Shown here piece after piece: positions 1 to 14,548 of a stretch of DNA of 64,000 bases (within the stretch, counting starts at the first letter, position 1; every line of letters begins with the position of its first letter). The notes under the pieces are model-generated. The model was not told where the DNA came from. It made no database searches and saw only the letters and a list, made by a program, of their open reading frames with translations. The stretch covers positions 13,596 to 77,595 of the forward strand of contig JAIEPF010000016.1 of assembly GCA_019749945.1 (NCBI GenBank). Direction: 5' to 3'. The translations under genes and the position numbers were made by a program. Source of the DNA: Burkholderiales bacterium (lineage in GTDB: Bacteria; Pseudomonadota; Gammaproteobacteria; Burkholderiales; SG8-41).

Positions 1-224
1 AAGGCGGTCGGTGCGCCCGTGCAGATGATCTCATGAGTGCATGATCATGGGGACATGAGTCAGGGATAAGTGCGGTGAAATGGGGCAGCGTAACGGTCCG
101 GACCGTTACGCGGGTTCCATGGATCGCCGCTTGCTTTAACCGGCAATCATTCAAGCGCCAGTGTTCCCGGTGGTTGCACTGGTCTGACCGGTACGGGCGA
201 ATCACGGGTATCGCAAAAGCCGGC

Positions 225-548
225 TCAAGCGATACCGGCAAACACCGCGAGTGAGCGATTGACCTTGAGCATCGTGGCGTCGTCGAGGCGGCCGATCACG
301 GCGCCGACCCGTTCCCGCGGCACCGACAGGATCTTGTCGATCTGGATTTGCGAGATGTTTTGCAGCCCGTTGTCCGGCCCCGGGTCCACCGTGATGCGGA
401 AGATGGGCGCGTTGCGCAGCTCGCTCGTCACCAGGCACAAGGCCACGCTGGGCAACTCGTCGAACAGGTCCGACTGGATGACCAGCGCCGGGCGCGGTTT
501 GCCGTAATCCCCGGGCGCCGCAACGGTCACCAAGTCACCGCGCCGCAT
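225..548 (-). CDS. Type II toxin, PemK/MazF family
   Basis: 107-aa ORF. N-terminus MRRGDLVTV...GKPRPALVIQSD and size are typical of PemK/MazF toxins. Overlaps the upstream small antitoxin ORF by 14 nt. Confidence 0.8.
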   Translation of the reverse strand: MRRGDLVTVAAPGDYGKPRPALVIQSDLFDELPSVALCLVTSELRNAPIFRITVDPGPDNGLQNISQIQIDKILSVPRERVGAVIGRLDDATMLKVNRSLAVFAGIA

Positions 549-747
549 CGTCCGTCCATGCCGCGGTCTGGCCGATGAACGCCAGCGCTTCGGTTTCAGC
601 CGGGTCGCCGCGCAGCAGCGCCGACTGGCGGCGGCATTCCGCTGCGAACACCGGCGAACGCGTGTCGGGCACCCAGAGCTGCACCAGCCGCAGGCCCGAG
701 GCCCGCTGCCGCACGCGGTACTTTTTCATGCGTTCGTTGACTTCCAT
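535..747 (-). CDS. MazE-like antitoxin (DUF3018-type)
   Basis: 70-aa ORF directly upstream of and overlapping the PemK/MazF ORF. The pattern MKKYRxRxRxxGLRxVQxWVPD is typical of the DUF3018 antitoxin family. GGGGG Shine-Dalgarno lies before the ATG. Confidence 0.7.
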   Translation of the reverse strand: MEVNERMKKYRVRQRASGLRLVQLWVPDTRSPVFAAECRRQSALLRGDPAETEALAFIGQTAAWTDDAAR

Positions 748-756
748 GGCGCCCCC

Positions 757-783
757 GTAACATGTTACGCAGCCATGTTATGG
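757..783. promoter_or_regulatory. Candidate operator of the MazEF-like operon
   Basis: Perfect 12-bp palindrome GTAACATGTTAC (757-768) and a second CCATGTTATGG element (773-783). Both share CATGTTA and lie 10-36 nt upstream of the antitoxin start. Confidence 0.3.
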
Positions 784-1040
784 CAACCGGAAGGCAGAAG
801 CAAGCCGTCATCCGATGGCAAACTCACCATCAAACAATCAATAACTATCTGTTTTTAATACAATAATTAAGTCAGCAATCACTCACTTCAGGACCCGGGC
901 GGCCGTGATCACCCGGGTCATGGTGATCACGGAATCCGGGATTGTGCCGATTCATGTCGGCAGCCATGACGAGGTGTATTGAGGGCTGAGTTTAAGAACC
1001 GGTGATGCAGGCCAGATCAATCGATACCGGTACCGGGGGC

Positions 1041-1616
1041 TCACTCGAGCGCCAGCGGCAACGGCCGGCCGTGGGCGATCAGCGTGTCGCGGATGAAATC
1101 CCGCCATTGTCGGGCGGGCTGCCACACGCGCAGCACATCATCGTAGGCCTGGTCCGGGTCTTCCTTGAGTGCAATCGCACGGTACAGGAATACGAAGCTC
1201 GAGGCGCGCAGGTTGATCTGGCAGTGAACCAGCACGCGTTTACCGCGCTGCGAATCGAGTATGCGCGCAAACTGTGCAAAGTCTTCAGGCATCGGCGCCG
1301 CAAAATCCACCGGGATATTGAAATAGCGCATGCCGCGCTGGGTCACCAGTGCCTCTTCATCGTCATGCGCACCCAAAACATTCGCCGGCGCCAGACTGAT
1401 GACGGTATCGAATCCGGCATTGGCGATGCCGGCGAATTGTGATCGCGTCGGCATGCCGGCGGAAGAAATCCGGGGGGTGTTCTCCACATAGTTCAGCGCC
1501 AGCGGGCCGGGGCTGACCATGAAGGGCATTGCGACGCGGCCAAAGACGATCAGCCCCGCGATCAACATGGCGGTGAATGTCAGGTAATCTGCCAGACGTG
1601 AACGATCAGCGAACAT
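1041..1616 (-). CDS. Membrane-anchored dual-specificity/tyrosine phosphatase-like protein (CX5R)
   Basis: N-terminal hydrophobic helix followed by the HCQINLRAS motif (HCX5R-S/T P-loop). Start chosen at the second ATG, which is preceded by GGGGGA. Confidence 0.65.
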   Translation of the reverse strand: MFADRSRLADYLTFTAMLIAGLIVFGRVAMPFMVSPGPLALNYVENTPRISSAGMPTRSQFAGIANAGFDTVISLAPANVLGAHDDEEALVTQRGMRYFNIPVDFAAPMPEDFAQFARILDSQRGKRVLVHCQINLRASSFVFLYRAIALKEDPDQAYDDVLRVWQPARQWRDFIRDTLIAHGRPLPLALE

Positions 1617-1674
1617 GGTTCCCCCGGATATCATGGGTCATCAACTGTGGTGAATCATTGACCTTCGTGACTCA

Positions 1675-1848
1675 TCAAGCGCACACGCAACCCTGCTCGG
1701 CGCCCTCGCAACCACAGGACTGCCTGCAATCGCATTGCGGCGGCAGGGCCATCGCCGGCGCGATGGAGGTGCCGGTCTGGCAGCCGCAGGGGCAGCCGGC
1801 GCCGGGGCAGTTGCAGCAGTTGCATTGGGCATTCATCGCCTGGCTCAT
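1675..1848 (-). CDS. 57-aa cysteine-rich metallothionein-like protein
   Basis: ATG at 1848 preceded by AAGGAAG. 13 Cys of 57 residues in CxC/CC/CxxC clusters, with no His or aromatic residues. It is the 3' part of a longer 199-aa ORF in the track. Confidence 0.55.
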   Translation of the reverse strand: MSQAMNAQCNCCNCPGAGCPCGCQTGTSIAPAMALPPQCDCRQSCGCEGAEQGCVCA

Positions 1849-2094
1849 GAAAAACTTCCTTATTAACAAGTATTTATGGTTGCGGACGGGCTTGTCCGAC
1901 ACCGGCATTGTGCTGGCCGGGCGCGTTTTCCACTTGAATGAAAGGGCTGACTTGCGGCGGGAAGGATGCAGCGCGTGAGCACCGCGCAGATTCGTGCGCC
2001 AGCCGCGGCGAAGCCCGTGCGCATCGCCGCACTCAAGATCGGCGTCGGGCGCGTCTGCATGTGACAGGGTGGCAGCCTGTGGATCGGGCGCGAG

Positions 2095-2802
2095 GTGGGG
2101 CGCGCGCAGCCCCACGCCCACCACGGCATACAGATCTCTCTGTCGCTGGATGGACCCGCCGGAAAACTCCTGCTGCGCAGTGGCACAGATGGCGAGTGGC
2201 CTGCTTTCAGGGCGGCCATCGTCAGGCCCAACCGCCGGCATGCGTTCGACGGCCTGGGCGGTTCCGTCGCCCAACTCTTTGTCGAGCCCGAAACCGTGCG
2301 GGGCCGCAGCCTGCTCAAGCGCTATGCGGTGGAGGACATCACCGCATTGCCGCTGGAAATGATTGAACCCGCATTAAACCGGCTGGCGAAGCGGTATGCG
2401 AAGGGCGGTGACATTCAGGCGCTGGTCGCGATCAGCCAGGGCATTGTCGACACGCTGGCCGGTGCGGAGCGCGCGCAACCTTCCGCGAATCCGCGCATCG
2501 CGGCGGCGATCGAATTCATCTCGCAGCACATGACCTCAACCCTCACGCTGCAGCAGGTGGCGGCCGCGGTGCATCTGTCACCCAGCCGACTGCGGCACCT
2601 CTTCGTGCAGGAAACGGGGACCACCTATCGTGGCTATGTGCTGTGGCTGCGCATCAACCGTGCAGTGGTGGCCATGATGGATGGCCGCAGCTGGACCGAG
2701 GCGGCCCATGAAACCGGATTTGCCGATTCGGCGCATCTCAGCCGGACGTTTCGGCGGATGTTTGGCATTTCGCCGGCGATGTTGATCAAGGAGAAGCGGT
2801 AG
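2095..2802 (+). CDS. AraC family transcriptional regulator
   Basis: C-terminal double HTH region (LTLQQVAAAVHLSPSRLRHLF ... FADSAHLSRTFRRMFGISP). The start codon is uncertain. Confidence 0.8.
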   Translation: MGRAQPHAHHGIQISLSLDGPAGKLLLRSGTDGEWPAFRAAIVRPNRRHAFDGLGGSVAQLFVEPETVRGRSLLKRYAVEDITALPLEMIEPALNRLAKRYAKGGDIQALVAISQGIVDTLAGAERAQPSANPRIAAAIEFISQHMTSTLTLQQVAAAVHLSPSRLRHLFVQETGTTYRGYVLWLRINRAVVAMMDGRSWTEAAHETGFADSAHLSRTFRRMFGISPAMLIKEKR

Positions 2803-5345
2803 GTAATCTCAATAAATCGACCCGGTAACGAAGGTTTTTCTCGGGCTCTCTTCGGATAGGATCTTGTCATTCGAGATGAGTGAATCGAACAAGAGGGAGT
2901 GAAAAAAGGATTAGGAACTTTTGGTTTTGTTGGCCCTATTTATATCTAGGTGCTGCAAATTGTTTTGGCGATAGCCAAGAGTTCACCTGGTATTTTTTCC
3001 CTTGTCACGGATAATTGTTTGATGAGAGAATTTTGTAGCGGTATTGAATTCGAGATCCCAAACCGCTTGGCACACATTGCAAGAAGTTCCTTGCCGGGAA
3101 AGAGTTGAAGCCATTGGTCAGAGTTCAACGCGCCCGCCACTTGCTTTTCCGCTGCATTAAGAACTTCATTAATGGCCGATTCAGACAAGGTTGTTTGAAA
3201 TTCAGCATGTATGCGTTGTGTGGACTCAAGGAGTTTAGTGCGCAGTATCTCTTGATGCTGAGTGACAGGAGTAACGCTACCGATAGTAAAGTACGACTCC
3301 GAAGTAAGTATTCTCCCAAGTGAAAAGTCTTGCGGTCTAACGGTCAAGTTGAGTCGGAACGCGACCATATCTCTGATAACGCTAGACGAGAGCTTATACG
3401 CATTCTCAAGAAAAATAGATTTTAATTCGACGGGAGTTTTTTGGAGCTGAAAAACTTCGGCAAGTACTTTTTGAATAAGCTCGAAATCAAGTAGATAGTT
3501 TTCAAGTTCGTGGCTTGACAGTACAAATATCCGTCCTGATGGGTGGGAACGATAACTATTGACCATTTCCTCAGTTAGATAATCCCGATCGCGTATAAGA
3601 GAAAATCTCATCCAGCCAAAATTGGCCTCCAAGATTGAGAGTATTGCCGCGTTAATACGATTCAGGGCGCCACTTGCTGTTGCGGGAATAAGTTTGACGG
3701 CCGCGTCGTCTTCTGAAAAAACGCTAGAAAAAAGTTTTCTGTCTTGACTGGTATTTTCGCCCTCTAAAAAGACAAGATTTTTGGCGACGCCGATGTATCC
3801 GGAGAAGCCAAATAAGTTTCTTAGTTCAGCTAGCGCCTCATTTTCATCGGTTGCTGCGATAAGTTTTGATTTCCGAGTCGCGGCGTCACGTGCTAGGTAA
3901 AGAACTTTGTCTCGTCCCGCCTCATCAATTATTTCGGCATTGTGTGTGGCCACCCATATCTGGTTTCCTGCCTTGATGGCTTTGATGTTTTGAATAAGTA
4001 GTCTTGACAATTCCGGGTGCAAATGAAGCTCGGGCTCATCGATAACAATAATTGCATTTTCGACGTTGTGACGAATAAAAAATGAAAGGATAAAAAATAC
4101 TTCTTTCTCTCCGGACGACAGATCGTTGAAAGTGATGACTTCCCCGGAGGGGATTTGAATAAACAAGTTCGAAGGAACTGGTTCATCGGGATTTGAAAAT
4201 TTGTATTCAGGAAAGAGTCTACTCAATAACTTTTCGTACGGAACAAGTGGGTCTTCAGGTTTTTGATTGACGGCGGCACCTTTGTTAATGGCGTCGTGAT
4301 ATGCGCCTAGTGCACGCAAATAATGGTAACGTTGCTGCACTAAAAACTCATACATTTCTCGATACTGAATGTCGCTGGTATTAAATGCCATCGACCACAA
4401 ATGCTCTTTGCGGCTAACGGTTTCAAATTCAAAAATTTTGTTGCGATCGAAAGATCGTTGAGGGTAGTTTCGATCTGCACGTAAAAAGAAACCTAAGGAG
4501 CGTTTAAGAATGTCTTTTAACTCTCGGGTGGCATACGAATGTAAATGGTTGTGTAAAGATTGGTCTTTTTGATATTCACCTTCAGTGTAGTTAAAGGCGC
4601 GATAGTAAATATTGCTCCGTCCTAGATACTCAAGCATTTGAAGGTGATGTTTGTATCCCCTGTTGTATTCTTCGGTTAACGCTTGGGTTCTTGCGGACTT
4701 TTGTTCAGGTGTGAAATCAGATTGCGCTACTACCCCCAATATTTTTTCATTGAGCAGTTTTTTGGGCTCCGATAGTTCATGATTTAGTTTGTCTCGAATG
4801 ATTGAGCATTCCTCCAACGTTAGTCCAATTCCAACCTCAAACGAAAAGCTTTCAAATGTTCTACCTAAACTCCAGTTCAGGCTGTAAGAGTTTGATAGCG
4901 CGTAACTGATGAGTTCTAGAACCGAGCTCTTTCCGCTGCCATTTGGACCGGCGAAGGCAATTAGATCAGAGAATTTTCCGAATAGATGTAAGGGGCCAAT
5001 AAACTCATTTTCTAAATGGCGAAACTTTTTTATTGAAACTGAGCTGATATACATTGGTGCGGCTCCTCATTTCCTATTTAAGCGTTTCCGAGGTAGTGAT
5101 GGGTCATATGTTTGTTGCATCAAAAGCAATATTTCGAACTAAGAATGGATGCGTGAGTTTGATGGCTACTTTCGTCAATAAAAAATTAGGGACCCAGTGT
5201 TTGTGCGGCCAGTTACATTTATAACAACTTAAATCCCTTTTTCAGCAGCTTGTTTGCACTTGAAATTCTCTCTCCTTGTTGTTCAATCCACGGCTTATCA
5301 AGGTCTAATGATGCGATTGCATCTGAGCTACGGCACCGAGATTCC
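2803..5345. mobile_element. AT-rich genomic islet (probable horizontal acquisition; no recombinase gene present)
   Basis: Composition changes abruptly from GC-rich to AT-rich immediately after the AraC stop. It returns to GC-rich at the duplicated lyase 3' segment near 5350. Confidence 0.55.
2946..5054 (-). CDS. ABC/AAA-type ATPase fused to a DUF4435/TOPRIM-like nuclease domain (OLD / PARIS AriA-AriB-like defence candidate)
   Basis: 702 aa. Walker A GPNGSGKS (aa 36-43), ABC signature LSSGE (312-316), Walker B IIVIDEPE (335-342), H-loop THN (370-372). These are followed by FLEGENTSQD (429-438), IRDRDY (487-492) and HELENY (515-520), which resemble TOPRIM/DUF4435 acidic motifs. Confidence 0.8.
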   Translation of the reverse strand: MYISSVSIKKFRHLENEFIGPLHLFGKFSDLIAFAGPNGSGKSSVLELISYALSNSYSLNWSLGRTFESFSFEVGIGLTLEECSIIRDKLNHELSEPKKLLNEKILGVVAQSDFTPEQKSARTQALTEEYNRGYKHHLQMLEYLGRSNIYYRAFNYTEGEYQKDQSLHNHLHSYATRELKDILKRSLGFFLRADRNYPQRSFDRNKIFEFETVSRKEHLWSMAFNTSDIQYREMYEFLVQQRYHYLRALGAYHDAINKGAAVNQKPEDPLVPYEKLLSRLFPEYKFSNPDEPVPSNLFIQIPSGEVITFNDLSSGEKEVFFILSFFIRHNVENAIIVIDEPELHLHPELSRLLIQNIKAIKAGNQIWVATHNAEIIDEAGRDKVLYLARDAATRKSKLIAATDENEALAELRNLFGFSGYIGVAKNLVFLEGENTSQDRKLFSSVFSEDDAAVKLIPATASGALNRINAAILSILEANFGWMRFSLIRDRDYLTEEMVNSYRSHPSGRIFVLSSHELENYLLDFELIQKVLAEVFQLQKTPVELKSIFLENAYKLSSSVIRDMVAFRLNLTVRPQDFSLGRILTSESYFTIGSVTPVTQHQEILRTKLLESTQRIHAEFQTTLSESAINEVLNAAEKQVAGALNSDQWLQLFPGKELLAMCAKRFGISNSIPLQNSLIKQLSVTREKIPGELLAIAKTICST

Positions 5346-5432
5346 TTGGTCTGTGGTCCCCCCAACCCCTTCCGCCCAAACACCATATATTCCGCACTGA
5401 TCACCTCGCGGAAATCCGCTGCCGTCAGGGGC
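5219..5432 (-). pseudogene. Displaced 3' fragment of the argininosuccinate-lyase-like gene
   Basis: Translates to ISAEYMVFGRKGLGGPQTKE, matching ISAETMVFGRKGLGGPQVKE near the C-terminus of the 6255-7706 gene. It has no N-terminal part. Confidence 0.6.
5351..5431. repeat. Direct repeat copy A (~81 bp, about 88 percent identical to 6402-6482)
   Basis: Aligned by eye: ctgtggtccccccaaccccttccgcccaaacaccata... versus ctgcggcccgcccaaccccttccgcccgaacaccata..., with 10 mismatches and no gaps. Confidence 0.8.
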
Positions 5433-5478
5433 GACCAATGGGGTCATGGGCGACCAATGCTAGGACCAATGGGGTCAG
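5433..5478. repeat. GACCAATGGGGTCA repeats next to repeat copy A
   Basis: GACCAATGGGGTCA occurs at 5433-5446 and 5465-5478, with a half copy CGACCAATGC at 5451-5460. Each unit has GACC/GGTC inverted arms. Confidence 0.5.
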
Positions 5479-5518
5479 GTCTAGCAAAGTAGCTCGTCCC
5501 TACATCCTGGCCGGTGAC

Positions 5519-5881
5519 TTAAGCCGCCTTGCGCGCCCGGGCACGACTCGGCACGCGTTTGGGGCCGGGCGCAGTCGAGTGCGCCGCGTTGAACGCGGCT
5601 CGAACTGCGGCCGGTTGTTTTGACGCGACCAGCAGCAGGGCGCGCGCGGGGCCATGCGGCTCTCGCCGGGCCTGCTCCCAATTGCGCAGCGTGCCGAGGC
5701 TGACGCCCATGAAGCCCGCGAATTCGGGCTGTGACAGGCCCAGTTCCTTGCGGATGGCCGGTACGTCAGCGGCAGTGGGCATGTCGACGACGTGGGTCTT
5801 CAGCTTCACTTCGCCACGGCGCCAGGCCTTGAGCTCTTCAAGGCCGGCGATGATTTCTTTGCCGATGTTGCGCTTGTTCAT
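5519..5881 (-). CDS. XRE-type HTH antitoxin (HigA-like)
   Basis: 120 aa with the HTH segment LGLSQPEFAGFMGVSLGTLRNWEQ. It lies downstream of the RelE/HigB-like toxin and overlaps it by 4 nt (ATGA). Confidence 0.8.
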   Translation of the reverse strand: MNKRNIGKEIIAGLEELKAWRRGEVKLKTHVVDMPTAADVPAIRKELGLSQPEFAGFMGVSLGTLRNWEQARREPHGPARALLLVASKQPAAVRAAFNAAHSTAPGPKRVPSRARARKAA

Positions 5882-6192
5882 TTGAATTCCTCAATGAGTT
5901 TGACCACTTGCTTCAGTTCGGCGGCGCTCAGGTTTCCTTTTTCGCTTTTTCCGTACAGCGTGAGAAACATGATCTGGTCTTCCGCCGTGAGCCAGTAATA
6001 GATCACGCGCAGGCCGCCCGACTTGCCCTTGCCGCCGGCGGCCCAGCGCACCTTGCGCACGCCGCCGGAACCGCGGATCACCGCGCCGGCGTCGGGCTGC
6101 ACCATCAGGTGGTTCTGCAGCGCCCGATAGTCTTCGTCGCCGAGGTATTCCCCCCGCAGCTTGCTGAACAGGCTGGCTTCGATGAATATCAT
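5878..6192 (-). CDS. RelE/ParE-superfamily toxin (HigB-like)
   Basis: 104 aa. The segment GGVRKVRWAAGGKGKSGGLRVIYYW...MFLTLYGKSEKGNLS is typical of HigB-type toxins. The toxin-first gene order matches HigBA. Confidence 0.8.
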   Translation of the reverse strand: MIFIEASLFSKLRGEYLGDEDYRALQNHLMVQPDAGAVIRGSGGVRKVRWAAGGKGKSGGLRVIYYWLTAEDQIMFLTLYGKSEKGNLSAAELKQVVKLIEEFK

Positions 6193-6254
6193 GGAGGAAT
6201 ATACGCCGTTGACGTATAGTAGGTCAATGACGCAGTATCGACTGTGGCCGGAGG

Positions 6255-7706
6255 TTACACCGGGCCGCCGTGCAGCGCCTGGAACGCACGATCGGCATGA
6301 GCCGCGCTCCGCGAGAGGTTTTCCGCCTTGTTGTTACGCCATGCCGCGCAGGCGCTGGCGAGGGTTCGGGTCGTTGCGAGCATGCGCTGCGTCTCTTTGA
6401 CCTGCGGCCCGCCCAACCCCTTCCGCCCGAACACCATAGTTTCCGCACTGATCGCCTCGCGGAATTCCGCTTCCGTCAGCGGCAGTTTATCCTTCGCCTG
6501 TTCCTCGTAAATCCGCTGCGCTTCGCTGTAGGGGATTTCGTGGATTTTCAGGCCCTTGCCGCGGCCGTAGTCGGTCAGCTTGCTGGCGAAATGGTGGCCG
6601 GTGCGGAAGGGCACTTCAGCTTTTTGTAGCAGGGCGTCGGCGATTTCGGTGGTGGTGGAGTAATCGGCGTTTACTTCTTCCAGCGCGCGTGCCTTGTTGA
6701 CCACCACTGCATCGACCACGCTGCCGAAGAGTTTGAACACCGTCAGCGCGCGGGCATAGGGCACCGGGTCATACATGCGGTAATCAAACATGCCGGTGCG
6801 GTTGTTGTGCGCGACAAAGGTCATGGTCTGCATTTCACTGAGCAGGATGCTGGACTGCGCGCGCAGTTGTTCGAGGGCGGCGGGGTTGCGCTTCTGCGGC
6901 ATGATGCTGCTGGTGCCGGTGAGTTCGCCGCTGCCGAGCATGAACCACGGTGTCGGGTTGGCGTACTGGGTGTGCAGGTCCTGCGCGAACATGCCGGTCT
7001 GCACCGCGGTCATCGCCCAGGCATTGGCGACGTCGAGCGCGCTGTCGATGGGTGCCAAGTGGTTGGCGTCGTAGGCGTTTTCGACCAGCCCGACAAAACC
7101 CAATAACTCGGCTAAGCGGTGCCGGTCGAGCGGGAAGCTGGAGGTCGCCAGTGCCGCCGTGCCCAGCGGGCATTGGTTCACCCGCGTGTAGGCCTGCTGC
7201 AAGCGCTCGGTCGCGCGCGCGAGGGCGGATTCAAAGGCCAGCAGGTAATGCGCGAACGTCGTCGGCTGCGCCTGCACGCCGTGGGTGTAGGCGGGGATGA
7301 TGGTTTCGATATGTTCTTCCGCGCGTTTGAGCAGTTTCTCGCGTGCTTCGATCAGCGCGCCGATGGTGTGCAGCAGGCCGTCGCGCAGGTTCATCCGCGC
7401 AATGGTCGAGGCCAGGTCCTGCCGGCTGCGGCCGGTGTGCAACCGCGAGGCTTCCTGTCCGGCGACGGCGATCAGGCGCGGTTCGTAATCGAGATAGTCC
7501 GCGGAGGTACGCTTCTCACCCGTGCGTTCATTTTCAATCACCTGCGCGATGCCCCTGGCGATGCGCTGCGCAACGTCCTTCGGCACGATGCCGGTCTCGG
7601 CGAGCATGACGATCGAGGCCTTGTTGATTTCATCCAGCCATTCAATCGAACGGCCGCCGCCGCGGAAGCTGGCGTTGATGTCGAGGGTGTGTGCGGAGTC
7701 GCTCAT
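6255..7706 (-). CDS. Argininosuccinate lyase-like enzyme (fumarate lyase superfamily)
   Basis: 483 aa with the fumarate-lyase signature GTSSIMPQKRNP and ArgH-like length and N-terminus. Confidence 0.85.
   Translation of the reverse strand: MSDSAHTLDINASFRGGGRSIEWLDEINKASIVMLAETGIVPKDVAQRIARGIAQVIENERTGEKRTSADYLDYEPRLIAVAGQEASRLHTGRSRQDLASTIARMNLRDGLLHTIGALIEAREKLLKRAEEHIETIIPAYTHGVQAQPTTFAHYLLAFESALARATERLQQAYTRVNQCPLGTAALATSSFPLDRHRLAELLGFVGLVENAYDANHLAPIDSALDVANAWAMTAVQTGMFAQDLHTQYANPTPWFMLGSGELTGTSSIMPQKRNPAALEQLRAQSSILLSEMQTMTFVAHNNRTGMFDYRMYDPVPYARALTVFKLFGSVVDAVVVNKARALEEVNADYSTTTEIADALLQKAEVPFRTGHHFASKLTDYGRGKGLKIHEIPYSEAQRIYEEQAKDKLPLTEAEFREAISAETMVFGRKGLGGPQVKETQRMLATTRTLASACAAWRNNKAENLSRSAAHADRAFQALHGGPV
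6402..6482. repeat. Direct repeat copy B (inside the 3' end of the lyase-like gene)
   Basis: Partner of 5351-5431. Confidence 0.8.
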
Positions 7707-7823
7707 GTTTTTTTCGAGGTGGTTGATGTGGCTGGATACTCATACCACGGTGCTGTCGGGGCGTCATTCCGGCGGAGCCCGCTTTTTGGCTGCGCCGGGA
7801 TGGCGGCGAATCATTTTAAAAAT

Positions 7824-7844
7824 ATCAATAAAATCAATTATTTA
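7824..7844 (+). repeat. AT-rich 21-nt motif ATCAATAAAATCAATTATTTA (family member 1)
   Basis: Near-identical copies at 62557-62577 and 54029-54049 (reverse complement). Contains an exact match to the IHF core WATCAANNNNTTR. Confidence 0.6.
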
Positions 7845-8413
7845 CAATCATTCCCCGCAGCGGGCTGCACGGGCTCTGCATACCGTGCCCTGACGCGCCG
7901 GCGCCACATCACCAGCAGCGGAATCACGATGGCGCTGGCGACGATATAGGCGAGCAGGATCAGCCAGGTGTTCATCTGCTGATCGGTTTCGTGCTTGAAA
8001 GTCTCGCGGTAGTCCATCAGCCGCTGCCCCTGCTGGTCGATCTGCCACGGCCGGTTGCCGAGGGCGGGATGCTGTTCGTACCACAGCGTGATTTCGCTGC
8101 CGCGGCGCAGTGCGCGGCTGGTGCGGGCATAGGCGCCGGGGTCGTTGCGGCGTCCGCTGTCGATGATGTATTCGGTGTCGGCGCCGCGCAGTTGCAGGTG
8201 CAGCGTGTACACATCGGGGCCGTGGCGGACGTGGCGCGAATCCTCGCTCAGGCGGTCGATGATGCCCGAGACCTGGGTCAGGTCGTCGCGGCCGGGGATG
8301 GACTGGTTCTGCAGCGCGAGGTTGGCCATCACAATGCCGAACACCAGCCAGAGCATTGCAAAAATCTCGGGGCGGTAGCGTTTGACGAATTCAGAGTCGC
8401 GGAGGCTGGTCAT
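7838..8413 (-). CDS. Hypothetical membrane protein
   Basis: 191 aa from ATG 8413, with predicted N- and C-terminal hydrophobic helices. The longer 303-aa ORF extension looks non-coding. Confidence 0.55.
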   Translation of the reverse strand: MTSLRDSEFVKRYRPEIFAMLWLVFGIVMANLALQNQSIPGRDDLTQVSGIIDRLSEDSRHVRHGPDVYTLHLQLRGADTEYIIDSGRRNDPGAYARTSRALRRGSEITLWYEQHPALGNRPWQIDQQGQRLMDYRETFKHETDQQMNTWLILLAYIVASAIVIPLLVMWRRRVRARYAEPVQPAAGNDCK

Positions 8414-8763
8414 CGGTCTGTGCTCAGCGGCTGCGTTCGGCCGGGCGGGCTTGGCCGCGGCAGTCGGCCTGGGTGTCGCGGGCGGAATCAGGCAAGGCAG
8501 CCCCCTGAAAACATGAATTGAATCAATTTCTTGTAAGGGATCCCGGGTTTGGCATCCAGCCTGGCGTTTCAGTTGGCAAAGTACTGACCCGGTTGTTATC
8601 GAGGGCCTGGACGGCACGGGGTGCGCGCAGGCACAAACGAGAATACACGGGATGCCATGGCTTGTGCTCGTGTGATCAACGGATGATTCCGCAATGTGTG
8701 GGGGCGTATGCCGGTAAGATGGGTCCTTGCGGCGGCAGTGGCGGGGCATAACGGGAGGCGCAG

Positions 8764-9405
8764 ATGGAATTTCTGAACATGATGGGCAGTCAAGGCGTCC
8801 GGCTGTGGCTGGCGCAGGCGACGGTGCTGTTTTTTCTGATGGGCGGTGTTGTGCTGCTGGGCATCGGCGTCAGTCTGCTCGTCAACAGCGCGCGGGCCCT
8901 GCGCTTTTTCGGCAGCATGAACCGCTGGGTGTCGATGCGCAGCGCGTCGAGGCCGCTGGAGATTCCCCGCGATACCCGGCAGGCGGTGCAGCAATACCGT
9001 TACTGGCTGGCGGCGGTTTTTGTCGCCGGCGGCGTGTTTGCGGTATTCAGCCTGCTCACCCAGTTCAAGGCCGCCGCAGTGGTGAACCTGTTCGGCCTCG
9101 ATTTCATGCGGCCGGCAGTCGCGGGCTGGCTGGTCGACAGCCTGCGCTGGATGCTGATCGCCGGCAACCTCGCCGCTGTGGTGGCCGGCATCATGCTCGC
9201 TTTTTTCCCCGATGCCGTGGTTGCGCTGGAAGCGCGCGGCAGCCACTGGTATTCGGAGCGCAAGATCACCAAGGGCGCCGATGACATGAACACCCGGCTC
9301 GATGCCTGGGTGACGGTTTATCCGCGGGCGGCGGGCGGCATCATCGTGGTTTTTGCGCTGGCGCTGATCGGCGCGTTCGGACTGATCCTGCCGAAGGTCT
9401 GGTAA
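8764..9405 (+). CDS. Hypothetical multi-pass membrane protein
   Basis: 213 aa with about 5 hydrophobic segments. GGGAGG lies upstream of the ATG. Confidence 0.6.
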   Translation: MEFLNMMGSQGVRLWLAQATVLFFLMGGVVLLGIGVSLLVNSARALRFFGSMNRWVSMRSASRPLEIPRDTRQAVQQYRYWLAAVFVAGGVFAVFSLLTQFKAAAVVNLFGLDFMRPAVAGWLVDSLRWMLIAGNLAAVVAGIMLAFFPDAVVALEARGSHWYSERKITKGADDMNTRLDAWVTVYPRAAGGIIVVFALALIGAFGLILPKVW

Positions 9406-9533
9406 ACCTGCTGCGTTACACCACGCGGCCCTTAAGTTCGGTAGCGAACTGACGCGGTTTCCCGCAGCGGGCAGGGTTGCTGTCCGGGCAGACGGAGCGG
9501 GGAGCGTACTGCCGCCAGCAAGGAGCCGCCACT

Positions 9534-9812
9534 ATGGAAACAAAACCGTTTGAAATGCGCGAACGCAAGGAAAGGCGCGCGCTTCCCGTGCGGCGCGCAA
9601 CCATTGACCAATTGACCGAGCAACTTTTTGTGGTGCAGAAGATCGGCCAATGGCTCGCGCGTGAAACCCACGGTGATGCCTATGTCCAAATCCGGGAACT
9701 GAACGAACTCTTTCACCAGGCGAACATTCAGCTGCGCCGGATCAAAAATGGCGCGGGTGCAAACAAGCGCTTGCCCTCATCCGGCGCAGCGTCTCAATTC
9801 ATGCCGGGTTGA
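9534..9812 (+). CDS. Hypothetical small protein
   Basis: 92 aa from ATG 9534, preceded by AAGGAG at 8-nt spacing. No family recognised. Confidence 0.35.
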   Translation: METKPFEMRERKERRALPVRRATIDQLTEQLFVVQKIGQWLARETHGDAYVQIRELNELFHQANIQLRRIKNGAGANKRLPSSGAASQFMPG

Positions 9813-10437
9813 TATTGTTTCGGGCCCTTTTGCCGTGCCCGGTGGTGCTGAAGGATGTGCGTGCCGCCAGCCGTGCGGCGAGCCGCGCCAGCGCCGGGTG
9901 TGATCCGCGCCATGCGTAATCCGGCAGCGCGAAGTCGAGATAACCCAGCGCGTAACCGGTGCTGATGTCGGCCAGCGTCAGGCGGCCGCCAAAACACCAG
10001 TCCTTGGTCCCCAGATCTTTTTCCAGCAACGCGAGACCGCGGTCTATTTTTGACTGCTGCTTGGCAAACCATGCGGCGGAGCGCTGCTTCTCCGCCGGTT
10101 CGCGGTATTCGTGGTTGATGGCAACGGTGGCTTCGGCGATGCCGTCGGCCAGCGCTTCCCAGCGTTTGACCTCGATGCGCGATTCAAAATCTTCCGGAAT
10201 CAGTTTCGCTCCGCTGCCGAAGGCATCCAGGTATTCGACGATCACCGGCGAGTCATACAGCGCGCGGCCGTCATCGCGTACCAGCGTCGGGATCTTGGCC
10301 AGAGGGTTGAACGCGGGCACCGGGGAATCCGGTGTCGAGGCGCGGGCGACGATGTACTCGCATGGAATGTTTTTTTCTGCAACAAACACGCGCACCTTGC
10401 GCACAAACGGGCTTCCCGGCGTGCCGAACAGTTTCAT
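9799..10437 (-). CDS. Glutathione S-transferase
   Basis: GST N-terminal thioredoxin-like pattern (MKLFGTPGSPFVRKVR...IPTLVRDDGRALYDSPVIVEYL) and matching length. Confidence 0.85.
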   Translation of the reverse strand: MKLFGTPGSPFVRKVRVFVAEKNIPCEYIVARASTPDSPVPAFNPLAKIPTLVRDDGRALYDSPVIVEYLDAFGSGAKLIPEDFESRIEVKRWEALADGIAEATVAINHEYREPAEKQRSAAWFAKQQSKIDRGLALLEKDLGTKDWCFGGRLTLADISTGYALGYLDFALPDYAWRGSHPALARLAARLAARTSFSTTGHGKRARNNINPA

Positions 10438-10571
10438 GTGACCTCCTCCAGTGGAGCGGGGATTCTAACGTCCACGCAGGCCGGGGCCGGTGGAGGCTGG
10501 CCGCGTGCTGCAAGCCACGCTAAGATGTGCGGCCCCGGGCTGGGTCGGCCCGGCCCCATCAGGGAGGCGGC

Positions 10572-10787
10572 ATGGAAACCCTTTACAAGTGGCGTGTTCA
10601 GGAAAAAGATCCGCGTGGCCGCGTGCGCTGGCGTCTTGTCAAAGCGCCGATGACCGAAGACACCGCCCGGTTCTGGGCGGCGAACAACAACAAGGTGATT
10701 GAGCGTATTGATGCGCTGAGCCCGGCGCAGCAGAGGCCGCAGCCGGGCACGGCCATCAATCCCGGCGTGTCGATGAAACTGCGCTGA
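10572..10787 (+). CDS. Hypothetical small protein
   Basis: 71 aa from ATG 10572, preceded by GGGAGG. No family recognised. Confidence 0.35.
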   Translation: METLYKWRVQEKDPRGRVRWRLVKAPMTEDTARFWAANNNKVIERIDALSPAQQRPQPGTAINPGVSMKLR

Positions 10788-10814
10788 GCGCGCGATCCGC
10801 CGTTCCCGCGGGCG

Positions 10815-11777
10815 TCAGCGCCTGGGGATGATCTCGTCCAGTCCCACGCCTTCGAGCGCGCCGAACAGCGCGGCGAGTTTCTGGCGGTCTGCATCCGGCA
10901 GCGGCGGCTGCAGGATGGCGTTGATGTTGGGAGCCAGGTGATCGGGATTGCCGGTGCCGAACAGCACGACATTGGCGCCGGGTTCGTGCCGCGCATAGCG
11001 ATAGGCGGCTTCGATGATGCTGCGCGCGCCCTGATCGTGCAGCAGGAAGTCCAGCGGGTTTTTCTTTTCGGCGAGCCATTTCGGCACCTTGCCCGCTGCC
11101 GCGAGTTCGGTGATGTCCTGCTGCAGGCGGCCCGGCACGCTGAAAATGGCGCGCACCGCGAACATCAGCAGCGTGCCGATGTTTTTGGCCTGTGTCGCCG
11201 GAAACACGCGTTGCCGCGCGTTCTGGTTGAGCATGTGGAAGGCCACCATTATCACGTCCCAGCAATCGTCGCTGAGCGCGCGGGCGAGCATGTCGTGCCG
11301 CGGATCGCGTCCGGCGAACTCGGTGATGCCGAGAAAACGGAACTTGCCTTTTTCCTTTTCGCGCAGCAGCGGCGGCACGATCTCGGCCAGCACGCGGTCG
11401 TATTCCTGCGGCAGCACGGTGTGCAGGCAGAACACATCGACATGGTCGGTGCCCAGCACCCGCAGCGAGCGGTCAAGCCCGGCGAGGACTTCCGCGACTG
11501 AGGCGATGCCGCTTTCACGCGATGCCACTTTGAGTTTGGTGGAGATGACCACAGAGTCGCGCGCGCGGTCCTTGATCGCTTTGCCGACGGCGGCTTCGGT
11601 GCCGTAGTGCTGCGCGGTGTCGATGAAGCTGATGCCGAGGTCGAGCGCGCGGCGCACGATGTCGACCGCATGCGCTTCGCTGTGGCCGGTGCCGAGGCCG
11701 AGTTTGCTGTTGCCGCCGCAGCCGAGGCCGGCGACGCTGACCTGGAGGCCGCTGCGGCCGAGGGTGGTGTATTGCAT
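10815..11777 (-). CDS. Aldo/keto reductase
   Basis: The segments LGRSGLQVSVAGLGCG and IDTAQHYGTE are typical AKR N-terminal motifs. Confidence 0.85.
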   Translation of the reverse strand: MQYTTLGRSGLQVSVAGLGCGGNSKLGLGTGHSEAHAVDIVRRALDLGISFIDTAQHYGTEAAVGKAIKDRARDSVVISTKLKVASRESGIASVAEVLAGLDRSLRVLGTDHVDVFCLHTVLPQEYDRVLAEIVPPLLREKEKGKFRFLGITEFAGRDPRHDMLARALSDDCWDVIMVAFHMLNQNARQRVFPATQAKNIGTLLMFAVRAIFSVPGRLQQDITELAAAGKVPKWLAEKKNPLDFLLHDQGARSIIEAAYRYARHEPGANVVLFGTGNPDHLAPNINAILQPPLPDADRQKLAALFGALEGVGLDEIIPRR

Positions 11778-11794
11778 AAGTCGTTTATAAAAAA

Positions 11795-11815
11795 ATTAAT
11801 AAAAACAATAACTTA
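11795..11815 (+). repeat. AT-rich motif variant ATTAATAAAAACAATAACTTA
   Basis: 18 of 21 positions identical to the 62557 copy. Intergenic. Confidence 0.45.
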
Positions 11816-11865
11816 TGAGTATACACCCTCTGCGCCCGCGGTGCCGGGCCTGTGCCGTGTCGAAC

Positions 11866-12840
11866 TTAATCCGCAGTGATCCCCGCCGCCTTGACCACCT
11901 TGCCCCATTTCGCGATTTCGCTTTTGATGTGCGCGGCGAATTGTTCCGGTGTGTTGCCGACGGCTTCCGAGCCGTCGGCGGCGAGGCGTTCGGCGGCCGC
12001 CGGCGAACGCAGGATGGCGACGATCTCGGTGTTGAGGCGGTTGATGATGTCGGCCGGTGTTTTTGCCGGGGCGAGGATGCCGTACCAGCCGCTGACGTCG
12101 TAGCCGGGGAATCCGGATTCGGCGACGGTGGGCACGCCCGGCGCGACCTGTGCGCGTTTGGCGGAGGACACCGCCAGCGCGCGCAGCTTGCCGGCATTGA
12201 CCTGCGGCATGCCCGACACCACGGTCGAGTACAACAGCGAGACATGGCCGCCGACGATGTCGGTGATCGCGGGCACGATGCCCTTGTACGGCACATGCAC
12301 CATGTTGATGCTGGCGCTGGTCTTCAGCAGCTCGAAGCCGAGGTGGCCCAGGGTGCCGGCGCCCGATGACGCGTAATTGATCTGTCCCGGCCGCATGCGC
12401 GCCAGCGCCACCAGTTCCCTGACGTTTTTCGCCGGCAGCGACGGATGCGCGAGCATCACGTAGGGCTGCGCGGTGGCCATGGTGACCGGTGCGAAGTCGG
12501 TGATGGAGTCGTAGGGCAGGTTGCGGCGCAGGCTGGGGTTGACGCTGTGCGTCGCGCTGACAATGGCGATGGTGTAGCCGTCGGCTGCGGCCTTGGCGGT
12601 CAGTTCGACGCCGATGATGCCGCCGGCGCCGGCGCGGTTTTCATGCACCACCGGCTGGCCGAATTTTTCCGCGAGCCGGCTGCCGATCATGCGCGCCACG
12701 GTGTCGGTGGCGGAGCCCGCCGATTGCGGGATGATGAAACGGATGGCGCGCGTCGGATAGTTTTGCGCCTGTGCCGCCGCGGCGCACAGGCTGCCGCAGG
12801 CGATCAGCGTGATGGCGACGGCGCGATGGATGATGGTCAT
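11866..12840 (-). CDS. Bug family (TctC-like) tripartite tricarboxylate transporter substrate-binding protein
   Basis: Signal peptide followed by QNYPTRAIRFIIPQSAGSATD. Length and C-terminus are typical of Bug proteins. Confidence 0.9.
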   Translation of the reverse strand: MTIIHRAVAITLIACGSLCAAAAQAQNYPTRAIRFIIPQSAGSATDTVARMIGSRLAEKFGQPVVHENRAGAGGIIGVELTAKAAADGYTIAIVSATHSVNPSLRRNLPYDSITDFAPVTMATAQPYVMLAHPSLPAKNVRELVALARMRPGQINYASSGAGTLGHLGFELLKTSASINMVHVPYKGIVPAITDIVGGHVSLLYSTVVSGMPQVNAGKLRALAVSSAKRAQVAPGVPTVAESGFPGYDVSGWYGILAPAKTPADIINRLNTEIVAILRSPAAAERLAADGSEAVGNTPEQFAAHIKSEIAKWGKVVKAAGITAD

Positions 12841-12867
12841 GGTGACTCCTCTCCGGGGTTTCCGGTT

Positions 12868-13858
12868 TTATTCAGGCTTGATGCCGGCGGTCTGGATCAC
12901 CTTCGACCATTTCGCCGATTCGGTCTGGATCACCTTGCGGAATTCTTCCGGGGTGCTGCCGATGACATCGGTGCCCTGGCCGGCCATGCGTTTTTTGACC
13001 TCGGGCTGCTGCGTGATCTTGACCAGCTCGGCATGCAGTTGTTTGATGATCGGCGCGGGCACTTTGACCGGCGCGACAATGCCATGCCAGGACGTGGATT
13101 GATAACCGGGGAATCCGCTTTCGGCGATGGTCGGGATGTCGGGTGCCGCGATGGAGCGTTTGGCGCTGGTCACACCGAGGCCGCGCAGCCGGCCGTTGGC
13201 GACAAACGGCGTCGCCGGCAGCAGGTTGATGAACATGAACTGGACCTGGCCGGAGAGCACGTCGTTCATGCCGACGCCGCTGCCCTTGTACGGGATGTGC
13301 ACGACATCGATGCCGGACAACATGCGAAAGAGTTCGCCGGAGAAATGGTTGCCGGTGCCGACGCCGCCTGAAGCGAAGTTCATTTTGCCGGGCTGGGATT
13401 TCGCCAGCGCCACCAGCTCCTTCACCGATTTGGCGGGCACATTGGGATTCACCACCAGCAGATACGGCGTTTCGGTGAGCAGCGAGATCGGTGCAAAGTC
13501 ACGCAGCGGTTCATACGGCAGTTTCAGGTAGAGGCCGGGGTTGATCGACATGGTGCCGGGTGGCCTGCATCAGGGTGTAGCCGTCGGGCGCGGCATTTTT
13601 GGCGATTTCACAGGCGATGTTGCCGGCGGCGCCGCCGCGGTTGTCGATCACCACCTGCTGGCCGAGGGATTCGCCGAGTTTTTGCGCAAACATGCGGCCG
13701 ACGATGTCGCTGGGGCCGCCGGGCGGGAAGGGCAGCATCAGCCGGATCGGACGATCGGGATAAGCGCCGGCTGCCGTTGCGGTTCCTGCGAACAGCGCGG
13801 CTGCGATCACAACGGCAATACGGGACAGGCATGCAAACGAACTCATCAATACCTCCAT
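12868..13858 (-). pseudogene. Bug family binding protein interrupted by a frameshift
   Basis: The N-terminal 115-aa ORF and C-terminal 227-aa ORF are in different frames. Together they rebuild one Bug protein. The shift maps to the GGG run near 13557. Confidence 0.75.
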
Positions 13859-13870
13859 GGCTGGATTGTT

Positions 13871-14548
13871 TTATGCCGGCGGCCAGATGCGGCGGCCGAC
13901 GGCGGGTGAATACGGGGCATGGGTCAGCTGCGGCACCACGCGACCCATCCAGGTGTCCGGGTCGTCGCGTTCGGCTTCGTGCGGAGCGAAAAACCGTTCG
14001 CGCAGTTCGAGGCTGCTGAACTCGTGCAGTATGGCGTGTTTGTAGAGTCCGACCGTCGCCAGCATTTTGCGCGCACCGACGCAGCCGGGCAGTTTCATCA
14101 GCAGCGGAAACCGCTGCTGCGCGTACCAGCCGCCGAGGTCGTCCTCGACGGCGGGCGTCGGCGCGTTGTAGTTGCCGATCTGCAGCACCGGCGCGGGAGC
14201 CAGGCCGGGGCCGCGCCTGGCGGCATCGGGGCCATAGATGCGCGTCTCTTCGGCGAGAATGCAGGCGGCGGGCTGCTGCCGCATGCCGATGAATGCTCGG
14301 GTCTCGGCACTTTGCCGTGATGCAAGCTGGCCGGGGCTGGGATTGAGGAAGCTGTGCGTGGTTTCGCCGCCGAACAAGGCAAGATAACCCCTGCCGCGTC
14401 CGCCGTGGCCGAGTTCATAGTGCGCGGCCCATTGATAACCGGGGCGGGCGAGTTTTTCCGGGATGTGCACGCGATGAAACCAGTCGCAGTATTCCACGCG
14501 CTGTTGTGCGGCGATGTCGTACCAGATTGCCCAGATGCCGTGATCCAT
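13871..14548 (-). CDS. Hypothetical protein (two similar ~100-aa halves)
   Basis: 225 aa from ATG 14548. No confident family assignment. Confidence 0.5.
   Translation of the reverse strand: MDHGIWAIWYDIAAQQRVEYCDWFHRVHIPEKLARPGYQWAAHYELGHGGRGRGYLALFGGETTHSFLNPSPGQLASRQSAETRAFIGMRQQPAACILAEETRIYGPDAARRGPGLAPAPVLQIGNYNAPTPAVEDDLGGWYAQQRFPLLMKLPGCVGARKMLATVGLYKHAILHEFSSLELRERFFAPHEAERDDPDTWMGRVVPQLTHAPYSPAVGRRIWPPA

Follow-up and report, generated by a model that had tools for sequence, protein, structure and literature searches.

Integrative elements are known that insert into the 3′ end of a gene and restore it with sequence of their own, such as tRNA and tmRNA islands or, as examples of gene ends borne on attP, e14 and phage 21 in icd. 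They need a tyrosine integrase beside one attachment (att) site, the boundaries of their att sites do not vary, and the native end that they displace is always found on the opposite side of the element. Other described forms of exchange are the C-terminal displacement at rhs loci, and also at contact-dependent inhibition (CDI) and mafB loci (Jackson et al., 2009; PMC2935791); the sequential displacement of type VI secretion system (T6SS) effector-immunity modules by homology-facilitated illegitimate recombination (Kirchberger et al., 2017; PMC5361080); and the hotspots of horizontal transfer free of mobile genetic elements, which are flanked by core genes and turned over by homologous recombination in these (Oliveira et al., 2017; PMC5635113), to which can be added the core defence hotspots of P. 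aeruginosa (PMC10250203). In this work we analysed a 64,000-nt stretch of DNA from a Burkholderiales bacterium (contig JAIEPF010000016.1), which as a whole is designated the window, and in which a direct repeat made of the 3′ end of a lyase gene flanks a toxin–antitoxin (TA) pair and borders a gene predicted to encode the fused form of the anti-phage system PARIS (AriA/AriB) (PMC11464382).

A preliminary description of this DNA had interpreted the duplication as the footprint of a site-specific integration. Our comparison with 80 loci and 120 proteins fetched from other genomes, all of them metagenome-assembled genomes or metagenome contigs and identified here with L (loci) and P (proteins) numbers, favours a different origin, to which we assign a probability of roughly 60%: the repeats would derive from two different alleles of a single lyase gene, whose 3′ ends were juxtaposed by recombination between two versions of a hotspot, and the scar, resembling those of C-terminal displacement, would have been left by island exchange without a recombinase.

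The duplicated lyase 3′ end

The two copies of the repeat, A and B (Table 1), align without gaps along 90 nt, with 77 identical positions (86%) and 13 mismatches; they have the same orientation, their starts are 1051 bp apart, and the longest identical run that they share is of 17 nt. All the genes at the locus (lyase, toxin, antitoxin and ATPase) are on the minus strand. The repeat had previously been delimited to 5351–5431 and 6402–6482, gap-free and with 10 mismatches; this was exact, and both the alignment and a blastn comparison of the 64-kb window with itself (E~8e-25, two copies) extend the similarity to 90 nt. The edges are sharp, with an identity of 17–30% in the 60 nt beyond each side. 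Blastn did not reveal any third copy in the 64-kb window, and neither a third copy nor a displaced native tail appeared in the window or in 30 related loci after BLAST with the 90-nt repeat and a six-frame search with a hidden Markov model (HMM) of lyase tails.

Table 1. Position of the relevant features in the window. GC, guanine plus cytosine content; HTH, helix-turn-helix.
Feature	Position	Strand	Basis and remarks
AraC-family regulator, conserved right flank of the hotspot	2095–2802	+	Pfam HTH_18
AT-rich block (tail A, intergenic stretch and AriAB), 42% GC versus ~63% around	2810–5342		GC scan
Predicted fused PARIS AriAB (ABC-type ATPase + DUF4435/TOPRIM), 702 aa, 42% GC	2946–5054	-	PADLOC, Pfam
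Tail A, complete but highly diverged AT-rich (41% GC) lyase tail plus stop codon	5219–5342	-	In frame with copy A
Repeat copy A, orphan lyase core fragment	5343–5432	-	Alignment, clade consensus
Junction spacer, 86 nt, from antitoxin stop to copy A	5433–5518		Unique to the window genome
HTH (XRE/NadS/MqsA-like) antitoxin, 120 aa	5519–5881	-	Pfam HTH_3
RelE-family toxin, 104 aa	5878–6192	-	Pfam PF06296, 35 bits (cutoff 27)
Promoter-like site, TTGACC-18-TATATT, 10/12 matches	6198–6227	-	Upstream of the toxin gene, inside the TA cassette
Tail B, working 45-aa C-terminal tail, 68% GC	6255–6393	-	Tail HMM
Repeat copy B, last strongly conserved lyase block (PLTEAEFREAISAETMVFGRKGLGGPQVK)	6394–6483	-	Nucleotide alignment
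Intact lyase, 483 aa	6255–7706	-	Pfam Lyase_1 + ASL_C2

The identification of the repeat as a duplicated lyase 3′ end held on closer comparison: copy B lies within the intact gene, where it encodes residues ~408–438, and the peptide encoded by copy A (PLTAADFREVISAEYMVFGRKGLGGPQTK) is in the same register. Nucleotide homology of the window lyase to all its orthologues ends at 6371–6394, which is the end of the GGPQ codons. We also observed that the tails diverge directly after a G-rich run of the coding strand (window 6394–6420, and 5343–5370; GGGGTTGGGCGGGCCGCAG), whose clade consensus is GGGGTTGGGGGGGCC.

Copy A coincides with the clade consensus save for four private substitutions within the 90 nt, with a possible fifth just beyond its left edge, and two of these four alter invariant Glu codons (LTEAEF to LTAADF). 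An in-frame stop codon occurs just upstream and there is no ATG; together with the private changes at invariant residues, this is consistent with copy A being an orphan, decaying pseudogene. The frame stays open for 43 codons past copy A, to the stop at 5219, and the deduced tail A reaches 15.3 bits against an HMM of 136 distinct lyase tails, a score attained by none of 2000 shuffles (maximum of 10.3); its length of 43 aa is within that of most tails in the family (43–48 aa). From this profile match we take tail A as a true lyase tail, so that the orphan comprises a whole lyase 3′ end, extending beyond the 90-nt repeat. A search with the orphan peptide gave no close match to tail A. Copy A has a GC content of 61%, as opposed to 41% next to it (5219–5342) and 42% across the whole AT-rich block, which is the sole strongly AT-rich stretch of the 64-kb window; copy A thus sits at a composition boundary, as had been noted.

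Tail B had in turn been considered a replacement C-terminus (at 6255–6400), but it is GC-rich and typical of the family (50.7 bits against the HMM of 136 tails), and its type is also found in L084, L085, L086, P0001 and P0031; it is the tail joined to copy A that is unusual and linked to an island. Tails A and B are unrelated at the DNA level and 27 points of GC apart. This difference, together with a higher similarity of copy A to the alleles of other strains than to copy B, makes it hardly credible that the repeats, direct and in the same orientation as they are, arose by local tandem duplication of the lyase 3′ region with later divergence and insertion of genes between the copies; besides, the two copies in one of the parallel loci described below (L017) come from different lyase lineages.

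Because the intact lyase scores 261.9 bits against the argH model TIGR00838, below the equivalog cutoff of 279.5, it is described here as a putative paralogue in the argininosuccinate-lyase/fumarase superfamily, not as a certified ArgH. Its best solved relatives are 6rx8 and 6g3d (508-aa proteins), which we take to be ethylenediamine disuccinate (EDDS) lyase; the alignment reaches residue 466 and runs through the tail, including the conserved Trp, indicating that the lyase tail is a real part of the fold. The enzyme is probably a C–N lyase acting on another substrate. Its neighbours in the window are TctC/Bug-type transporter genes.

Tails, islands and resident genes in related genomes

Among the 49 proteins of the close group, with bodies identical to that of the window lyase at 85% or more of the positions, the median pairwise identity reaches 0.89 in the body and 0.21 in the tail, and the tails fall into 36 clusters; in the distant group these values are 0.79 and 0.45. 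Distant orthologues (62–72% identity) have a recognisable common tail, whereas those of the closest relatives are almost unrelated to each other. In 13 of ~20 close loci, the GC content changes from 62–65% in the body to 37–46% right after the GGPQ codons, and in most close loci it stays low for 0.5–2 kb or more into the island; this break implies that the working C-terminus of the lyase is part of the AT-rich island in those genomes. L002 and L012 have one tail type and one 6.5-kb island in common, with lyase bodies that are 80–82% identical, indicating that the tail types are old. Rapid divergence in place was considered as the source of tail diversity and rejected, because DNA of 37–46% GC lies beside a core that is 90–95% identical and because one tail type occurs across bodies of ~80% identity.

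The lyase body of the window is 94% identical in nucleotide sequence to those of L001, L002, L004 and L005, versus 77–88% for the flanks, and looks like a patch homogenised by recombination. The 94% segment corresponds to window 6484–7750 and the upstream flank, 77–88% identical to any relative, to 7751–14000; identity to L001 climbs towards the 3′ end of the body.

The cargo of the islands differs in every relative and is mostly related to defence. It includes STAND/AAA ATPases in L005 and L006 (defence-like, with no PADLOC match), BglII plus MT-A70 restriction-modification genes in L013, an Eco57I methylase and a MORC-like ATPase in L010, MazG_C, 5-hydroxymethyldeoxyuridine (5-hmdU) kinase and uracil-DNA glycosylase (UDG)-Panacea genes in L002 and L007, a mad6/PD-T4-6-like kinase in L015, PDC-S60 in L017, Mrr in L085 and the full-length fused PARIS AriAB in the window. 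Many loci also have in common a conserved right flank with esterase, hydrolase and TauD genes. These variable islands and tails bear out the earlier suggestion of a hotspot subjected to repeated exchange of foreign DNA. In the chromosomal islands behind the lyase of L002 (11449–17538) and L007 (11545–14230), MazG_C, the 5-hmdU DNA kinase and the UDG-Panacea fusion appear with a thymidylate-synthase-like gene. Such 5-hmdU/MazG gene sets are known from phage thymidine hypermodification.

Neither an integrase nor a transposase was found in the segment that the repeats enclose, in the AT-rich block or among ~30 island open reading frames (ORFs) of 14 related loci; in the window, the scan applied Pfam and NCBIfam models to all ORFs in 1–8749, with the remaining ~50 kb and the rest of the genome lying outside it. 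Likewise, in loci that contain a single island, neither the six-frame search with the tail HMM nor BLAST with the 90-nt repeat detected a displaced tail at the distal end of the island, which indicates that the islands were replaced and not integrated.

The start of the antitoxin gene overlaps the stop of the toxin gene by 4 nt, and the antitoxin is nearest to the NadS and MqsA models, in both cases under the cutoff. The description of the pair as HigBA-like is right as to gene order, since a small toxin of the RelE/ParE superfamily precedes an HTH antitoxin in one operon with a predicted promoter, but not as to family: the toxin matched no HigB model, only PF06296 (RelE), and gave no NCBIfam or PADLOC match. 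An identical toxin protein is present on contigs L081–L083. In L085 and L086, collinearity with the window begins at the start of the lyase and covers tail B and the RelE and HTH genes, with 85% and 81% nucleotide identity, respectively; their homology to the window stops at the antitoxin stop codon and neither contains a second lyase copy. Since this identity is that of the window flanks to L086 (84–86%), tail B and the TA pair look native to the lineage of the window. Additionally, L084 has tail B without the TA pair, and 80 loci contain related TA cassettes (toxins 50–72% identical) without the lyase, their homology to the window being limited to the segment from ~6244 (start at ~6244/6231) to ~5583, which includes the promoter-like site. 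A unit made of a surrogate tail and the TA pair, bounded by the repeats, is thus not supported by these single-copy, TA-free and lyase-free loci, and the TA pair does not appear to be the insert.

Two independent loci, L017 and L175, have the same layout as the window: an intact lyase with a GC-rich tail, resident genes, an orphan core fragment with an AT-rich tail and a defence gene. The polarity is always the same, and the orphan cores measure 90 nt in the window, 219 nt in L175 and 244 nt in L017. In the latter, a divergent intact lyase, whose tail has 71% GC, and then a PAS/HD gene precede the 244-nt orphan, its AT-rich tail, PDC-S60 and the esterase/hydrolase genes. The DNA at the left of the orphan is at most 77–86% identical to any other locus, whereas from the orphan to ~18000 it is 93–97% identical to loci of the window clade; such a segment inside a divergent background is an imported patch of ~5 kb headed by the orphan. 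The two lyase copies of L017 belong to different lineages, the alleles being 77–80% identical. An apparent start of this orphan at the same base as that of the window was discarded as an artefact of the 90-nt query, since L017 keeps 244 nt of the core. In L175, a glutathione S-transferase gene, the intact lyase with its GC-rich tail and five metabolic genes, collinear with L009 (a relative without island), are followed by the 219-nt orphan (93% identical to its own lyase and 95% to L001), an AT-rich tail and an AAA_15 ATPase other than that of the window, with 38–43% GC, and the locus ends in the AraC-71aa-191aa flank typical of the window (L175 10006–11742 versus window 2804–1040, 86.6%). The orphan tail of L175 (8001–8348) extends ~15 codons beyond the usual length and overlaps the start of the next ATPase gene (8323); its original stop codon may have been lost. 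L178 (P0242) is too short for its fragment to be classed as an orphan or not.

These comparisons bear directly on the proposal of an att-type scar, in which a small integrative element, made of the TA pair and a surrogate lyase 3′ end, would have been inserted by a site-specific recombinase later lost or acting in trans. Several features are as expected from such an element: direct repeats of a gene 3′ end flank a short cargo, they contain an identical core of 17 nt, the similarity to all orthologues is lost within ~3 nt of the Gln codon, and the island-borne surrogate tails resemble gene ends borne on attP. We nonetheless consider this origin very improbable, because no recombinase was found in the interval, in the AT-rich block or in the 14 related islands, cargo and tail do not travel together, the lyase with tail B and the TA pair exists without a second copy in L085 and L086, the left edge of the orphan varies (90/219/244 nt) and single islands have no displaced tail at their far end. 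The same facts speak against the att-type insertion of ~1 kb between the repeats that the preliminary description had put forward. No relative lacking the TA pair and the ATPase was seen to hold both repeat copies, an observation that does not separate the two models.

Partial copies of genes were also found at the other side of the hotspot. At the right end of its kinase island, L015 has an orphan AraC 3′ fragment of 245 nt (13960–14204; 92.7% to window 2556–2800), which indicates that this island came from a donor with a window-type AraC flank. In L018 (14258–14423 and 15537–15702) and L007 (14389–14554 and 15668–15833), a 166-nt direct repeat with copies 84–87% identical and 1279 bp apart brackets an esterase-like gene, one of the copies corresponding to the 5′ part of the 200-aa hydrolase gene found downstream, as an orphan; this is a scar of the same type, located at the right border of the hotspot.

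The AT-rich gene of the window had been proposed to be a defence gene, in agreement with a full-length match of its product to the PADLOC model PDLC02981 (E 3.4e-140, residues 1–697 on profile positions 1–689 of 694) and with Pfam domains AAA_15, AAA_21 and DUF4435; we therefore annotate it as fused PARIS, a defence activity being predicted. The nearest AriAB homologues are 68–74% identical and occur in other contexts, and those with ~60% identity are mostly from Bacteroidota; homologues elsewhere lack the lyase tail, so that AriAB is a generic cargo. In an unrelated metagenome contig (L090, 4312–4659), a truncated Phage_integrase ORF lies beside a 68%-identical AriAB homologue, indicating that this cargo also travels on integrase-bearing elements elsewhere. 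At the opposite end of the block, the variable DNA begins right after the AraC stop codon. A second TA pair, with overlapping genes on the minus strand for a MazE-like antitoxin (535–747) and a PemK/MazF-type toxin (225–548), is located ~2 kb past AraC; its Pfam families (window 225–747) were taken from the gene table of the identical contig L172.

Origin of the scar

In this group of Burkholderiales, anti-phage genes are exchanged at a hotspot located just past the conserved lyase …MVFGRKGLGGPQ codons and free of recombinases in the islands scanned. In most strains the last ~45 lyase codons belong to the AT-rich island, with tail and island forming one exchangeable unit. The usual exchange would take place by homologous recombination in the lyase core at one side and in the conserved right flank at the other, leaving no duplication. 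The lineage of the window would natively have consisted of the lyase, the GC-rich tail B and the RelE/HTH pair, and would have acquired, between the TA pair and the AraC flank, a donor fragment with the last ~90 nt of a lyase core, the AT-rich tail A and AriAB. Had the donor lyase piece recombined with the resident lyase, tail B would have been lost together with the addictive TA pair; for this reason, the donor piece would instead have joined illegitimately 86 nt past the antitoxin stop codon, in a one-sided event of the homology-facilitated illegitimate recombination type, and decayed since. A clean swap would likewise delete the resident genes of any recipient that has them after the lyase, be it a TA pair, the PAS/HD gene of L017 or the five metabolic genes of L175, and the surviving recombinants would be one-sided joins that keep these genes and leave the donor lyase arm as an orphan. 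The anatomy of the locus, the hotspot, the tails linked to islands, the lack of recombinases in the DNA scanned and the two independent parallels are visible in the sequences themselves, whereas we infer the direction of the event in the window from the parallels and from the levels of divergence, and with it the illegitimate join and a selection to keep the TA pair.

The junction spacer contains imperfect micro-duplications of ~19 nt (TGACCCCATTGGTCGCCCc), the last of which overlaps the first bases of the lyase fragment; the read-through is …ATTGGTCGCCCA·TGACCCC·ATTGGTCGCCCC·TGACGGCAGCGG…. The self-comparison detects a repeat of 17 nt, with 94% identity and a spacing of 19, and a 14-mer occurs twice, while none of 100 shuffles gave at least 3 matches. 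This 14-mer is absent from the other loci, save for contigs of the same source. Tandem Repeats Finder did not detect a tandem array in the spacer, which is too short for this program, and the micro-duplication is deduced from the self-comparison of the window, the 14-mer test and direct reading; we read it as the mark expected of an illegitimate join. The pattern of one homologous end and one non-homologous join is clear in L017; in the window, the left join (5432/5433) looks illegitimate and the right end is unmapped.

The event could also have occurred in the opposite direction, as in the published model of Rhs-style C-terminal displacement (PMC2935791): a resident lyase with tail A and AriAB would have received an incoming lyase core fragment with tail B and the TA pair, either through homologous recombination at one side only, with the lyase as anchor, or through the single homologous crossover of a circle carrying the ~90-nt core fragment, and the old tail and AriAB would have been pushed downstream. 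Tail B, the TA pair and the spacer are exactly what the repeats enclose (1051 bp), in keeping with a Campbell-type product; the lyase body and copy A resemble the L001/L005 group, and tail B with the TA pair resembles L084–L086; and copies A and B differ at ~3–4 sites once the private substitutions are removed. Yet tail B and the TA pair diverge from L085/L086 as much as the flanks do, the orphan side of L017 is clearly an imported patch, homologous recombination between alleles 77–80% identical is implausible in that locus, and the proximal block of L175 is the native arrangement seen in L009. Moreover, three independent joins would have to fall in the last 250 nt of the resident lyase, and the origin of the circle would be left unexplained, so that we hold this direction to be unlikely, if worth keeping in mind.

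The continuity of the locus was compared with independent Logan and ENA contigs, which match window 6484 to 5372 and 5387 to 724 at 100% identity. The unitigs from the TA side end at 5372 and those from the AriAB side begin at 5387, with both kinds co-occurring in the same samples, and every Logan unitig (at least 7 samples) breaks inside copy A, which indicates that the centre of copy A is also present, unchanged, in the lyase alleles of strains co-occurring with that of the window. The break point is common to two variants of the AriAB protein (P0121 and P0241). An assembly chimera, in which the TA-side contig of one strain was joined through the shared 45-nt centre to the AriAB-side contig of a strain with an intact lyase and tail A, would account for all the independent unitigs breaking at 5372 or 5387 and for the other alleles identical to 5358–5402 in the same samples. 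It seems very improbable, because the orphan lyase fragment after the TA spacer is independently confirmed in L081/L082, and the scar hence exists either way; because private bases are found at both sides of the shared centre (5354/5357 and 5414/5421), those at 5357 and 5414 being only 57 nt apart, within one read; because unitigs of both sides are found in the same samples; and because L175 and L017 have the same layout in unrelated assemblies.

Several observations weigh against the juxtaposition of two alleles by island exchange. No independent contig crosses the 45-nt conserved centre of copy A (5358–5402), so that the link across it rests on the window's own assembly, and exact look-ups, the AriAB homologues and the search with the orphan peptide did not yield the donor haplotype, that is, an intact lyase with tail A and AriAB. 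The lyase body, being itself a putative recombinant patch, requires at least one further event. If the private substitutions arose after the event, copies A and B would have been ~96% identical when it occurred, and a single homologous crossover would then have been possible. Furthermore, all three orphan cores are short (90–244 nt), and random fragment ends might vary more. Finally, the AraC flank is common to the window, L175 and L015 only, which leaves the right end of the putative patch unmapped.

The repeat itself is an ordinary recombination scar, and inert. Tentatively, as a possibility that we would place a little short of even, the ~90 nt encoding …MVFGRKGLGGPQ could be a population-wide homology arm for the recombinase-free swapping of anti-phage cassettes, each with its own AT-rich tail; this would be a case of C-terminal displacement outside polymorphic toxins, with orphans arising where a TA pair or other resident genes make a clean double crossover lethal or costly. 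The locus shows the turnover of defence islands without the machinery of mobile elements, at a hotspot whose border is inside the reading frame of a conserved enzyme; dozens of old and mutually unrelated tails travel with different defence cargos, and partial copies of flank genes mark one-sided joins of haplotypes. An orphan gene end coinciding with a GC break could thus be used as a sequence marker for imported patches at recombinase-free hotspots, and a duplicated gene 3′ end is not to be called an att site without a recombinase and fixed boundaries. It also suggests the idea that chromosomal TA pairs shape island exchange by penalising the replacements that delete them.

Comparison with known displacement systems and hotspots

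As in the elements that target gene 3′ ends, the lyase locus has a duplicated gene 3′ end, a foreign surrogate end and a composition break inside the gene; neither an integrase, nor fixed boundaries, nor a displaced end at the far side was found in window 1–8749 and the related loci. The AriAB of the window is like the fused form of PARIS (PMC11464382), in which the ABC ATPase and DUF4435/TOPRIM are in one polypeptide, although as cargo only it has no bearing on the origin of the repeat.

The locus resembles the hotspots free of mobile elements (PMC5635113) and the core defence hotspots of P. aeruginosa (PMC10250203) in the fixed site, the rapid turnover of defence genes, the lack of integrase and transposase and the elevated recombination in the flanking core gene. 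Unlike them, its boundary lies inside the reading frame of the flanking gene, whose C-terminus is accessory DNA, an arrangement of which no description appeared in the literature compared here.

With the displacement of T6SS modules (PMC5361080) it would have in common, under the exchange proposed here, a conserved gene as homologous anchor at one end and an illegitimate join at the other, with no specific integration site; old modules are kept as orphans, and double homologous replacement, which leaves no orphan, is the commoner outcome. In the T6SS, retention is explained by the benefit of the immunity genes, whereas in the lyase locus it is the resident TA pair or metabolic genes that are retained and the orphan is a non-functional gene end.

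The likeness to rhs-type loci (PMC2935791) includes a conserved GC-rich core with an exchangeable 3′ tip of lower GC, the change taking place at a conserved peptide motif; a great diversity of tip types, all of old origin; the lack of a recombinase; and a dissociated core fragment of variable length that is found with its tip and a downstream gene behind the intact gene. The lyase locus differs in that the core is a metabolic lyase, and not a secreted polymorphic toxin; the tip is a structural tail of 43–48 aa homologous to the normal tail, and not a toxin domain; the linked cargo consists of anti-phage genes instead of a cognate immunity gene; and one orphan per locus was seen, instead of strings of them. 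The direction of displacement is probably also reversed, the orphan being imported rather than displaced. What is new here, as a variant of known hotspot and displacement architectures, is that the C-terminus of a metabolic enzyme is AT-rich accessory DNA and goes with defence islands.

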